A DNA stretch of 11,520 bases from a virus (lineage: Duplodnaviria > Heunggongvirae > Uroviricota > Caudoviricetes), in the IMG/VR virus record IMGVR_UViG_2671180727_000025; one strand, 5' to 3'. Each line of letters starts with the position of its first letter. The stretch's first letter is position 1. The notes under the pieces are model-generated. The model made no database searches. It was not told the DNA's origin and saw only the letters and a program-made list of their open reading frames with translations. Below, piece by piece: positions 8,497 to 11,520 of the stretch. The position numbers were made by a program, and so were the translations under genes.

Positions 8497-8789
8497 CAGA
8501 AGAACTTATCACCCTGGAAGAAGTGAAACTCCATTGCCGTATCGATGGAGACGAGGAAGACCAGTTAATCAGCGGATACATTGCCGCATCGCTTGAGGCG
8601 TGCCAGATACACATAGGCAGGCGCTTTGATGACGGGCTGGAGTTCACGCCAGCCATAAAGATTGGCTGCATGATGTTTATCGCTCACCTGTATGAGAATC
8701 GCCAGATTGTCGCGGATAACGCAAAAACACGCGTACCCATGACGATTGGCGCACTCTGGACGGCTTACCGTGATGTGGGGGTGTACTGA
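8493..8789 (+). CDS. gp6-like head-tail connector protein
   Basis: 98-aa ORF with ATG overlapping the upstream stop (ATGA). N-terminal ITLEEVKLHCRIDGDEEDQLISGYIAASLEACQ matches the typical gp6-like connector N-terminus. Confidence 0.7.
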   Translation: MTEELITLEEVKLHCRIDGDEEDQLISGYIAASLEACQIHIGRRFDDGLEFTPAIKIGCMMFIAHLYENRQIVADNAKTRVPMTIGALWTAYRDVGVY

Positions 8790-9229
8790 TGCCGTGGCAA
8801 CCATTAAGACGATGCACAGAACCAGGCTGTAACAGGCGCGTTAAATCCGGCAAGTGTGAGGAGCACAGGCGGGCGGCATGGCGTGCAGAGGATGCCAGAC
8901 GAGGACACCGCCGCGCGCGTGGATATTCCAGACAGTGGGACAAATACCGCGCCATGTATCTGAGTAAAAACCCGTTATGCGTGCGATGCCTTGAGAAGGG
9001 GATATATACGCCCGCCGTGGTGGTGGATCACATTATCCCGATTAATGGCGGTGATGATGTTCTCTTCTGGCCCGAATGGAACCATCAACCATTGTGTCAG
9101 GCGTGTCATAACCAGAAAACGAAATGGCTTGATCCGGCAACAAAAAGCAAGCGTGCCGCAGGTGGATTTCGTGAAGAGGAAGAACGGGCCGCTAACCGCA
9201 ATAACTGGATGTATGACGCTGATGAATGA
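8789..9229 (+). CDS. HNH endonuclease, terminase-associated (HK97 gp74-like)
   Basis: 146-aa ORF with ATG overlapping the upstream stop. Cys pairs (CTEPGCN, CVRC, CQACHNQ) and the DHIIPINGG...NHQPLCQACHNQKT HNH motif. Sits next to the terminase genes, as in cos-type HK97-like packaging modules. Confidence 0.88.
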   Translation: MPWQPLRRCTEPGCNRRVKSGKCEEHRRAAWRAEDARRGHRRARGYSRQWDKYRAMYLSKNPLCVRCLEKGIYTPAVVVDHIIPINGGDDVLFWPEWNHQPLCQACHNQKTKWLDPATKSKRAAGGFREEEERAANRNNWMYDADE

Positions 9230-9395
9230 TCGGGAACAAAACCGCCTTATCCGTGGACTTATAAGGCAGCGTGACGCATGGAAGACACAGGAAACAGGGC
9301 ATAAAGATAAAGCGTCAGGACGCGCAGAACGCATCACAGCGAAGCGATTAACCGACCGTGACCGCGAGGTTATGGAATGTTTCCGCAATCGCTGA
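9213..9395 (+). CDS. Possible small basic protein (hypothetical, weakly supported)
   Basis: 60-aa ORF (MTLMNDREQNRLIRGLIRQRDAWK...) from ATG 9213, overlapping the HNH 3' end in another frame. No convincing Shine-Dalgarno. The region could instead be non-coding packaging-site DNA. Confidence 0.25.
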   Translation: MTLMNDREQNRLIRGLIRQRDAWKTQETGHKDKASGRAERITAKRLTDRDREVMECFRNR

Positions 9396-9518
9396 TGAGG
9401 CTGTATGACGGGGTGGGGGGCGTTTTCAGGACAAACCCGACCCCGCCGGGCACCGAACGCCTCCTCAAATTTTTATGCACGGGAATTTTTTGAAAAATAA
9501 TCTGGCGAAAAAATAAGC
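9396..9518. other. Candidate packaging (cos) region upstream of the small terminase gene
   Basis: Non-coding stretch between the HNH and small terminase genes containing a G-rich tract (GGGGTGGGGGG, 9410-9420) and an imperfect GC-rich inverted repeat (9407-9418 versus 9436-9447). In HK97-like cos phages the cos site lies between the HNH gene and terS. Assignment is positional inference only. Confidence 0.2.
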
Positions 9519-9875
9519 ATGTCAAGACCACCGAAAGCCCCCGCCTACCTGGATGATATCGCCGTGAAGCAGTGGCGGGAAAAATCTAGGCAGCTTGCGG
9601 AACGGGGAGACCTGACCCCCGCCGACTGGAGCAATCTGGAACTGTATTGTGTCAACTACTCCATTTACCGGAAAGCCGTTGCAGACCTTGCGGCGCGCGG
9701 GTTCAGCATTGTTAACAGTCAGGGCGGTGAGAGCAGAAACCCCGCATTAAGCGCAAAATCCGACGCTGAAAGAGTGATGATAAAAATGGCCTCCTTGCTC
9801 GGTTTTGACCCGATAAGCCGCCGTAAAAATCCACCGGAAACAGAAGAAGAGGACGAGCTTGACCGCCTGGAATAA
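9519..9875 (+). CDS. Terminase small subunit, P27 family
   Basis: 118-aa ORF. The conserved pattern ...W..LELYCVNYSIYRKAVADL...NP...LLGFDPISRRK matches P27-type small terminases. Lies directly upstream of, and overlapping, the large terminase gene. Confidence 0.8.
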   Translation: MSRPPKAPAYLDDIAVKQWREKSRQLAERGDLTPADWSNLELYCVNYSIYRKAVADLAARGFSIVNSQGGESRNPALSAKSDAERVMIKMASLLGFDPISRRKNPPETEEEDELDRLE

Positions 9876-11520
9876 GTACGCAGAAGACGTAAAAACGGGC
9901 AAAATTCCGGCCTGTAAACGGCTGAAACAGGCCGTTAAACGGTACTTTTCGGACCTTGAAAGCCCCCTTTACACGTTCGATCGTGAGGTTGTGGAGCGGT
10001 TTATTGCCTTTTCCAGGGTGTGCCCGCACGTAAAAGGGCCGATGCGTGGCAGATCCATTGAGCTGGAGCCGTGGCAGCAGTTCGCCTTTGCGTGCATCCT
10101 CGGCTTTAAGGTTAAGGCCACCGGACGGCGCAAATACACGAGCGCCTTTATCGAAGTGCCGCGCAAAAATGCGAAATCCACGACCGCCGCGATTCTGGCT
10201 AACTGGTTTCTGATTATGGAGAACGGGCAGCAGGATATTTACACCGCAGCGGTGAGCCGTGACCAGGCGCGGATCGTTTTTGATGATGCGCGTCAGATGT
10301 GCCTTTTATCCCGACCGTTACGCAGGCGGGTGAATATTCAGGCCCACAAGGTGATGCACCCGAAAAGCAACAGCCTGTTAAAGCCGCTGGCAGCAAAAGC
10401 GGCAACCATCGAGGGCACAAACCCAAGCCTTTCCATCGTGGACGAATACCACCTACACCCCGATAACGGCGTTTATTCCGCGCTTGAGCTGGGGATGGGC
10501 GCACGTCCCGAAGGGCTGTTATTTGCCATTACCACATCGGGCAGTAACGTCGTTTCAGCCTGTAAGCAGCACTATGATTATTGCTGCCAGATCCTGGACG
10601 GCGAAGAGGTCAACGATTCAATTTTTGTGCTGATTTACGAGCTGGACGACGAAAACGAGGTTGATGATCCGGCGATGTGGATAAAGGCTAACCCTAACAT
10701 CGATGTTTCCGTGGATCGTGAAAAACTGGCCTCAACCATCCAGAAAGCGCGGGGTATTCCGTCGCAATGGGTGGAGATGATGACAAAGCGATTTAATATC
10801 TGGTGCCAGGGGGCTACCCCGTGGATGGGTAACGGCGCATGGGCTGAGTGTGCCGGAACGTACACGGAGGAAGATTTACACGGGCAGGAGTGTTACGCGG
10901 GGCTGGACTTATCATCAACCAGCGATATTTCCAGCGTGTGCTATGCCTTTCCGGTCGGTAAAAATATCATGCTGGTTTCCCGTCATTATCTGCCGGAGTT
11001 CCAGCTACAGAACCCCGCCAATAAAAACCGCGCTGTCTATCGCCAGTGGGCTAAAGCGGGCTGGATACGCACAACGCCAGGTGACTGCATTGATTACGAC
11101 CGGATCAGAGATGACATCATGCAGGATGCGGAGAAATTTAATATCAGGCTGGTGGGCTTTGATACGTGGAACGCCACGCATCTCAGGACGCAATTACAGG
11201 GGGCTGGTTTTGAGGTGGAGCCGTTCCCGCAAACCTACCTCAGATTCAGTCCGGCGGCGAAATCGTTCGAAGTTTTTGTTAACCGCAGGGTGATTGTGCA
11301 TCGTGGCGATCCGGTGTTGTCCTGGTCGATGAGTAACGTCGTGATGCAGAGTGACGCGAACGCCAATATCAAGCCGAACAAGAAAAAATCACCGAACAAG
11401 ATAGACCCGAGCGTGGCGGCGCTGATGGCGTTTGGTACATTCCAGGCAGAGCATGAGGATTTTGCTTTTGATATAAGCGACAGCCACCGCCAGAAACTGG
11501 AAGAATTTAGCGGGGTGTAA
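9859..11520 (+). CDS. Terminase large subunit (Terminase_1-type)
   Basis: 553-aa ORF. ATPase motifs (VPRKNAKST Walker A-like, SIVDEYH Walker B-like) and a C-terminal nuclease region. Apparent TTG start at 9859 overlaps the small-terminase 3' end by 17 nt, preceded by GAGGA (9849-9853); the first in-frame ATG is about 60 codons in and would truncate the conserved N-terminus. The stop is the last codon of the window. Confidence 0.9.
   Translation: MTAWNKYAEDVKTGKIPACKRLKQAVKRYFSDLESPLYTFDREVVERFIAFSRVCPHVKGPMRGRSIELEPWQQFAFACILGFKVKATGRRKYTSAFIEVPRKNAKSTTAAILANWFLIMENGQQDIYTAAVSRDQARIVFDDARQMCLLSRPLRRRVNIQAHKVMHPKSNSLLKPLAAKAATIEGTNPSLSIVDEYHLHPDNGVYSALELGMGARPEGLLFAITTSGSNVVSACKQHYDYCCQILDGEEVNDSIFVLIYELDDENEVDDPAMWIKANPNIDVSVDREKLASTIQKARGIPSQWVEMMTKRFNIWCQGATPWMGNGAWAECAGTYTEEDLHGQECYAGLDLSSTSDISSVCYAFPVGKNIMLVSRHYLPEFQLQNPANKNRAVYRQWAKAGWIRTTPGDCIDYDRIRDDIMQDAEKFNIRLVGFDTWNATHLRTQLQGAGFEVEPFPQTYLRFSPAAKSFEVFVNRRVIVHRGDPVLSWSMSNVVMQSDANANIKPNKKKSPNKIDPSVAALMAFGTFQAEHEDFAFDISDSHRQKLEEFSGV

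Follow-up and report, generated by a model that had tools for sequence, protein, structure and literature searches.

A probable HK97-type cos site, preceded by a small accessory gene, in a capsid-forming phage-inducible chromosomal island of Escherichia coli

Introduction

What lies in the 289 bp that separate the stop codon of an HNH endonuclease gene (9229) from the start codon of a small terminase gene (terS, 9519) in the viral DNA of IMG/VR record IMGVR_UViG_2671180727_000025? The stretch analysed, 11,520 nucleotides assigned to the Caudoviricetes, is called the window, and positions refer to it unless another sequence is named. A first-pass annotation had proposed that this gap of roughly 290 bp holds an HK97-like, HNH-assisted cohesive end (cos) site, which would give the element a packaging specificity of its own, and had pointed to a G-rich tract, an imperfect GC-rich inverted repeat and a basic open reading frame (ORF) of 60 amino acids (aa) overlapping the end of the HNH gene. 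Phage-inducible chromosomal islands of the capsid-forming type (cf-PICIs) are satellites of wide occurrence; they build capsids of their own and package no DNA but theirs, and their spread across species is of current interest.

The analysis presented here indicates that the region is very probably the cos site of a cf-PICI, laid out on the plan of phage HK97 and preceded by a small accessory gene. The proposal of an HNH-assisted cos site between hnh and terS is thereby supported, because the element has the gene content of a cf-PICI, its HNH protein resembles gp74 of HK97, the layout agrees with that of HK97, the region is conserved across three bacterial orders, and the termini of a related molecule fall within it. 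The existence and the extent of the cos module are well supported. Elements of this known kind are expected to have such a site, and here it can now be delimited almost to the nucleotide.

The element is a capsid-forming island

Judged by its gene content, the window belongs to a cf-PICI of Escherichia coli inserted between roxA and phoQ. E. coli chromosomes match the window at up to 99.8% identity, and a relative is present in 533 of 5,426 complete genomes. At the FORC_041 locus, which is 99.8% identical to the window, the annotated island spans about 15 kb between roxA and phoQ, and begins with an integrase, an alpA-like helix-turn-helix regulator, a RepA helicase, SSB and PerC. The head genes follow (major capsid protein, prohead protease, portal, head closure and head–tail adaptor), and the island ends with HNH, a 60-aa hypothetical protein, a P27-family small terminase (TerS), the large terminase (TerL) and one further hypothetical protein; there are no tail or lysis genes in the annotated FORC_041 island. 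Thus, the FORC_041 annotation shows the features by which cf-PICIs are recognised: a size of 10–18 kb, an integrase, an alpA-type regulator and a replication module, together with the element's own capsid, protease, portal, connectors, HNH, TerS and TerL, and the absence of tail and lysis genes. Both the definition of cf-PICIs and their hnh-terS-terL order come from Alqurainy et al., who also showed for the island EcCIEDL933 that transfer requires all of its packaging genes, including hnh, terS and terL each, and that packaging is helper-independent. Packaged cf-PICI DNA concatemerises via cohesive cos ends (He et al.). In the literature, induction by a helper phage and transfer with helper tails have been demonstrated only for EcCIEDL933 and KpCIDSM30104, and the searchable cf-PICI papers (Alqurainy et al., He et al.) contain neither a map of the cos site nor a discussion of the small ORF.

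Over 85 aa, the HNH protein of the window has 39% identity with gp74 of HK97 (E 2e-19). TerS scores 83.7 bits on PF05119 (cut-off 24.7) and has no similarity to gp1, the TerS of HK97, that is detectable by sequence.

A conserved module upstream of terS

To guard against circularity, loci for comparison were chosen by the TerS protein alone, with one genome per species, which gave 43 loci from Enterobacterales, Aeromonas and Pasteurellaceae. A strict pattern of the module is found in 40 of 44 sequences (these loci and the window), and at least two of the four misses are slight variants. Across the 32 unique loci, the mean consensus frequency is 0.87 for a 50-nt core, close to that of the first and second codon positions of terS (0.88), and 0.79 for the G-box segment, compared with 0.59 for the spacer between them and 0.58 for the third codon positions of terS. 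On this comparison of sequences, the non-coding module at 9410–9500 is under strong purifying selection in three bacterial orders.

The module has three parts, whose coordinates are given in Table 1. The first is the G-rich tract of the first-pass annotation, GGGGTGGGGGG at 9410–9420, which stands out far above chance: the window has a single GGGGTGGGGGNNGTTTTCAGGAC where 0.01 would be expected. The exact pattern of this first block, the G-box, is present in more than 120 IMG/VR contigs, and GGTGGGGG is kept in the TerS-selected loci of Enterobacterales, Aeromonas and Pasteurellaceae. The second part is the spacer, which varies in sequence but not in length: G-box and C-box are 40–42 nt apart in all 46 distinct variants. 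The third part, the core block, is the most conserved and comprises the putative cut site (cosN) and the presumed TerS recognition site (cosB-like). The latter consists of CGGG followed by AATTTTTT, with a T-run at 9486–9491 that corresponds to +23 to +28 of the predicted left DNA end; it is unique in the window and conserved in relatives. It appears to be the analogue, at +14 to +28, of the TerS element of HK97, a likeness of layout, as the TerS is of another family. The sequence at the predicted left end, TCAAATTTTTA (9464–9476), is invariant, with Pasteurellaceae (e.g. locus L128, 1437–1449) reading AATCAAATTTTTA. The Pasteurellaceae form fits WATCAANNNNTTR, the consensus for integration host factor (IHF); a host bending protein might be involved.

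Table 1. Features of the hnh–terS region and its neighbours, in order of position
Feature	Position	Strand	Basis or remark
HNH endonuclease, HK97 gp74 homologue	8789..9229	+	Pfam PF01844 E 1.8e-8; phrog_144 E 8e-45; PGAP
Small basic protein gene, FRNR-ending family, phrog_3173 (unknown function)	9222..9395	+	57 aa; PGAP start 9213, 60 aa
Upstream cos element: G-box GGGGTGGGGGG, then CGTTTTCAGGAC; whole GGGGTGGGGGGCGTTTTCAGGAC	9410..9432	+	unique in window, conserved
Spacer AAACCCGACCCCGCCGGG	9433..9450	+	length fixed, sequence hypervariable; consensus frequency 0.59
Putative cosN core CACCGAACGCCTCCTCAAATTTTT	9451..9475	+	near-invariant block in relatives; contig ends; homologous position in HK97
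Core block CACCGAACGCCTCCTCAAATTTTTATGCACGGGAATTTTTTGAAAAATAA	9451..9500	+	most conserved part of module
Presumed TerS recognition site (cosB-like) GCACGGGAATTTTTTGAAAAATAA	9477..9500	+	G/C triplet, then A/T tract from +23 of predicted left end
Small terminase, P27 family (Terminase_4)	9519..9875	+	PF05119 E 1.3e-23; phrog_83
Large terminase	9859..11520	+	phrog_9 E 6e-178; PGAP

Could the module instead be a control region for the transcription or translation of terS and terL (for example a late promoter, a target for antitermination or an element within the mRNA), with the cos site lying elsewhere? It is directly upstream of terS, weak −10-like hexamers occur in its A/T-rich segment, and some records of HK97-like phages annotate a "promoter" in the equivalent region. 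However, neither a sigma-70-like site on the + strand nor a terminator-like site was found in the gap, where the single promoter-like match on the minus strand equals the chance expectation; no Rfam match was found at E <= 1; and the DNA fold of 9396–9518 is no better than that of shuffled sequences (z = −0.97), which also disposes of a hairpin or cruciform. As the layout moreover corresponds position for position to a mapped cos site, and the termini of contigs and records fall within the module, a control region is a very unlikely explanation.

The GC-rich inverted repeat of the first-pass annotation does exist (9409–9418 and 9436–9445, with arms of 10 nt that are 90% complementary). However, its 3′ arm lies within the hypervariable spacer, where 63 distinct relatives reveal no fixed-register covariation. 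Since covariation is absent and the fold is not significant, the repeat is regarded as incidental, arising simply where a G-rich box and a C-rich stretch face each other.

Several loci deserve separate mention. In the island copy of Shigella flexneri SFBU1023 (L129, 2490–2510, corresponding to 9441–9546 of the window), about 98 nt have been lost between two short direct repeats, CCCCGCC, and with them the whole cos core and the first seven codons of terS; this copy should be unable to package itself. Pasteurellaceae bacterium Macca has at least nine TerS-related loci in one genome (L154–L161, L170), and several Pasteurellaceae islands (L162, L164 and L166 among the loci compared) have extra short palindromic repeats, e.g. 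CCAATTTTGG and TGTACATATGTACA, between the cos module and terS. Just past the end of the window, a 93-aa hypothetical gene follows terL (L001, 16835–17116) and matches phrog_1561 (unknown function). The 21.3-kb contig IMGVR_UViG_3300016725_000266 (L346 and L226) has a complete island from int to terL and, directly after it, a second, partial set of HNH, small ORF, cos, terS and terL, which is either a tandem of satellites or an assembly through a concatemer.

Predicted nicks and cohesive ends

Where within the module is the DNA cut? The most informative molecule is IMGVR_UViG_3300022664_000095, a 15,518-bp metagenome contig of a relative, in which the genes are in the order terS-terL-hyp-int-alpA-...-capsid-protease-portal-closure-adaptor-HNH-small ORF and host genes are absent; it is an excised, cos-opened permutation of the island. 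The contig starts CTCAAATTTTTACGCACGG..., with CTCAAATTTTT first, and ends ...TTTTCAGGACAAAACCCAAGCCGCAAGGCAC (...AAGGCAC), and integrated relatives read ...GGCAC/CACCCGCCCC/CTCAAATTTTT.... Therefore, the contig is without exactly 10 nt, as would be expected if end polishing had removed 10-nt 3′ overhangs from linear DNA; had the overhangs been 5′, they would have been filled in and would show at both ends. By homology, the cohesive 10-mer of the window is predicted to be CGAACGCCTC at 9454–9463, with a left end beginning at C9464, and the predicted nicks are at 9453/9454 in the bottom strand and at 9463/9464 in the top strand. Because the 10-mer is absent from the contig, and because HK97 provides a precedent, the polarity is most likely that of a 3′ overhang.

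Other records break in or beside the module. A window-like isolate contig (L062) ends ...GGGCACC, 1 nt past the predicted bottom-strand nick. Two GenBank records obtained from particles are interrupted there as well. That of vB_KppS-Ant, described as an "induced prophage", ends ...TTTTCAGGAC and restarts 22 nt before terS, with about 69 nt around the predicted cut lost, and in the chimeric record P12620-1 the cf-PICI part starts at the ATG of terS and finishes where the small ORF ends. Apparent ends near the motif in L021, L108, L121, L014 and L048, and likewise in L238, were discarded, as these positions are not true contig ends.

Two of these records are also of interest in themselves. vB_KppS-Ant (LR881103.1, "Escherichia phage", 16,548 bp; L002) was deposited as a phage, but has the gene content of a cf-PICI (terS, terL, int, primase, capsid, protease, portal, connectors, HNH and small ORF); its 2.3-kb gene after terL is labelled "tail length tape measure protein", a doubtful label, as the gene is in the accessory slot of the island. 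In Klebsiella phage P12620-1 (PQ569648.1, 106.5 kb; L003 and L124), the last 16 kb or so are a cf-PICI fused to unrelated phage sequence exactly at the start codon of terS. This "complete genome" is probably a chimera, assembled from a phage and a satellite that was packaged alongside it.

Several points weigh against the interpretation given here. The termini come from one relative contig, whose TerS is about 82% identical, with nick positions transferred from it to the window, and further scans of IMG/VR (three) and of metagenomes (one) yielded no second contig with both ends at cos. The end of L062 is 1 nt off, in an isolate draft genome in which the break could be an effect of assembly. 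The 3′ polarity is deduced from the missing 10-mer and from HK97, and the analogy of the presumed TerS site to that of HK97 is one of layout, between small terminases without detectable similarity. Finally, the small protein cannot be essential for cos recognition in general.

The module might thus be only the terminase-binding (cosB-like) part of the site, with the real cut tens of bases away, for example in the spacer, or with an overhang of another length or polarity. Apart from the single contig and the offset of L062, this would accord with the variation between lineages in the first four bases of the predicted 10-mer. However, the 10-nt gap of the contig equals the overhang length of HK97 and is at the homologous position, and the length of the module between its anchors is constant in all relatives, so that a cut elsewhere is considered unlikely. 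Packaging by the headful mechanism, with the module as a pac recognition site, is extremely improbable. Small terminases of many families do serve pac systems, and the evidence of termini is from relatives rather than from the window element itself. However, the related contig is of unit length with defined ends 10 nt apart, cf-PICI DNA concatemerises through cohesive ends (He et al.), and a packaging-type HNH gene next to terS is the hallmark of HNH-dependent cos packaging (Kala 2014 and Quiles-Puchalt 2014, as cited in the cf-PICI literature). A cos site cut within the module remains the preferred reading.

The small gene between hnh and cos

The 60-aa ORF was regarded as unproven in the first-pass annotation, which named its conservation as the point to check. 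The ORF is indeed present at 9213–9395, where PGAP annotates the hypothetical protein WP_000174068.1, and by its pattern of sequence change it qualifies as a genuine gene, probably of 57 rather than 60 codons. The phrog_3173 profile is matched over its full length (positions 1–57 of 57; E 5.5e-36), with the alignment beginning at residue 4 of the ORF; therefore, the likely start is the ATG at 9222, within the ATGAATGA overlap with the HNH stop codon. This ATGA-type overlap of start and stop is kept in relatives. When the corresponding position was translated in more than 120 loci, there were 61 distinct proteins of 46–58 aa, from many genera of Enterobacterales, all of which keep the frame and end ...R(D/E)RExxE(C/A)FRNR; their indels are whole codons, and conservative amino-acid replacements are seen between genera. 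The median dN/dS (ratio of non-synonymous to synonymous substitution rates; pairwise Nei–Gojobori) is 0.34 in frame, compared with 1.50 and 1.64 in the shifted frames, and entropy is 55 at third positions, compared with 35 and 33 at the other two. The homologue in vB_KppS-Ant also matches phrog_3173 (E 2e-27).

An untranslated ORF, in which conservation would reflect DNA-level packaging signals extending upstream of the G-box, has only a slim chance of being the explanation. It would suit the high nucleotide conservation of the 3′ end of the ORF, which abuts the cos module, the lack of a Pfam family for the protein, and the lineages that package with the same module but have no ORF. However, it would not account for purifying selection and a third-position excess that are specific to one frame, for indels of whole codons, for conservative replacements, for the conserved overlap with HNH or for membership of an established PHROG family. 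With the small ORF established as a gene, coding sequence makes up about 60% of the "gap", and the true non-coding stretch is only 9396–9518 (123 bp), within which the cos module occupies about 90 bp.

The small gene is restricted by lineage. It is present in most Enterobacterales relatives, and absent, with the downstream module kept, in Aeromonas, Citrobacter amalonaticus, a metagenome-assembled genome of Leclercia, Symbiopectobacterium and all Pasteurellaceae relatives. Because these lineages retain the cos module, the gene is accessory. In Kosakonia cowanii (L143), the distance from HNH to G-box is 161 nt, as usual, and the frame of the small ORF is broken, which looks like a phrog_3173 pseudogene. 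In the AlphaFold2 model of the protein, a disordered linker joins a long helix at the N terminus to a short one at the C terminus (predicted local distance difference test, pLDDT, 76; predicted template modelling score, pTM, 0.35), and this pTM was judged too weak for a meaningful fold search; a word-based protein search returned only close E. coli relatives.

What the small protein does is only a guess: as it is co-expressed with HNH and its gene adjoins cos, the likeliest role is to assist cos cleavage or packaging as an accessory, without belonging to the core machinery. A more speculative proposal, which we consider doubtful, is that the FRNR protein and the spacer of fixed length and hypervariable sequence form a lineage-specific layer of specificity over the HK97-type cos site, in that the HNH-coupled protein would attach to the G-box and spacer, or close to them, and license cleavage of its own cos variant alone. 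If this were so, co-resident cf-PICIs and helper phages would be kept from packaging each other's DNA, and the protein would represent a new class of cos accessory factor.

A model for packaging and its implications

How would the parts work together? After induction and replication, the island's P27-family TerS would bind the G/C-plus-A-tract element at about 9477–9500, just upstream of terS. TerL and the gp74-like HNH protein would then nick the two strands at staggered positions, the bottom strand at 9453/9454 and the top strand at 9463/9464, which would produce 10-nt cohesive ends, CGAACGCCTC, most likely as 3′ overhangs. Packaging would proceed from the new left end, CTCAAATTTTT..., on the terS side, round the excised genome into the small capsids made by the island, until arrival of the next cos stopped it. 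Lying a constant 44 nt upstream of the first nick, in a fixed helical phase, the G-box is probably an element for positioning or termination, which can be seen as analogous to cosQ of lambda. Translation of the small protein would be coupled to that of HNH.

Neither the 10-mer nor the presumed TerS site has the sequence found in the HK97-type cos of helpers, so that the terminases of island and helper would not cross-package. The suggestion that the element has its own packaging specificity is, to this extent, supported by sequence comparison with the helpers HK106 and HK446, and is consistent with the exclusivity reported for EcCIEDL933.

A prediction at the level of nucleotides, covering G-box, fixed spacer, 10-nt cohesive end and TerS site, has several uses. 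It enables the design of minimal cos cassettes for cf-PICI-based DNA delivery, swaps of the 10-mer or TerS site that ask why island and helper terminases do not cross-package, and the detection of packaged cf-PICIs in viromes by the positions at which reads start. The conserved small gene beside cos is, in addition, a candidate packaging factor.

Comparison with known systems

Among the closest known systems are the cf-PICIs EcCIEDL933 and KpCIDSM30104 (Alqurainy et al. 2022/2023; He et al. 2025), which have the same gene content, gene order and size of about 15 kb as the island of the window, and in which hnh-terS-terL likewise closes the packaging operon. Unlike them, the island of the window is inserted between roxA and phoQ. 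The likely sequence of EcCIEDL933, a contig of low coverage from phage material that had been grown on ATCC 43895, has the same cos module and a 50-aa member of the same family of small proteins, whereas its nucleotide identity of about 75–84%, and 80% for the TerS protein, places the island of the window in another sub-lineage. No link by locus tag between the small ORF and "hypothetical gene 1792" in the packaging module of EcCIEDL933, a gene whose mutant transfers poorly, was found in the text, supplements or cluster names of the paper.

The cos site of phage lambda (cosQ-cosN-cosB) is also tripartite: an upstream element keeps a fixed distance, the centre receives staggered nicks, and a region for the small terminase lies on the side that is packaged first. 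Unlike the module of the window, it yields 12-nt 5′ overhangs, needs no HNH protein and has R-sites for gpNu1 and a site for IHF, and the sequences are unrelated.

It is HK97 that provides the plan. Its DNA ends have 10-nt 3′ overhangs, and its record ends ...GGGCAGGGGGGGGGATCAAATCTTCAAAACCTTTGCCCCAAATGACCGCCGCCAAA and begins GTTTGAATTTAACGCTAACCCGATTTTTTTAG..., with terS at +50. The cut region reads GAC/CGCCGCCAAA/GTTTG, at the position homologous to the putative cosN of the window, and CGCCGCCAAA is the cohesive 10-mer of HK97, because the records of HK633 and HK140 stop 10 nt before that of HK97. The minimal TerS site of HK97 is CTAACCCGATTTTTT, at +15 to +29, with a G:C pair at +21 and an adjacent A-tract from +23/+24 (PMC11331095). 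Set side by side, HK97 and the window, the latter with its predicted cut, have 32 and 33 nt between the G-run and the first nick; a C-rich cohesive end of 10 nt each (CGCCGCCAAA and CGAACGCCTC, with CACCCGCCCC in relatives of the window); a G/C triplet followed by a T-run from +24 and +23, which is where TerS of HK97 binds; and the terS ATG at +50 and +56, respectively. In HK97 and its relatives HK022, HK106 and HK446, as in the window, the cos site is between terS and a homologous HNH gene. Between gp74 and cos, HK97 also has an unannotated ORF of 67 aa (L127, 595–798), which matches phrog_10282 (unknown function; E 1e-47). As in the window, a small ORF overlaps the HNH stop codon, although the families are unrelated (phrog_10282 in HK97, phrog_3173 in the window). 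HNH-dependent cos systems may repeatedly carry a small ORF at this place, between hnh and cos.

The differences concern sequence, TerS and scale: the cohesive ends and TerS sites are of different sequence, the small terminases are of different families (gp1 versus Terminase_4/P27), and a 40-kb phage stands against a 15-kb satellite. The helpers of EcCIEDL933, HK106 and HK446, carry the HK97 cos (95–97% identity) and not that of the island, so that helper and island differ in the 10-mer and in the presumed TerS site, which fits the mutually exclusive packaging shown experimentally for EcCIEDL933. That the layout of the HK97 cos is kept despite another family of TerS suggests that it is set by TerL, HNH and the capsid machinery rather than by TerS.

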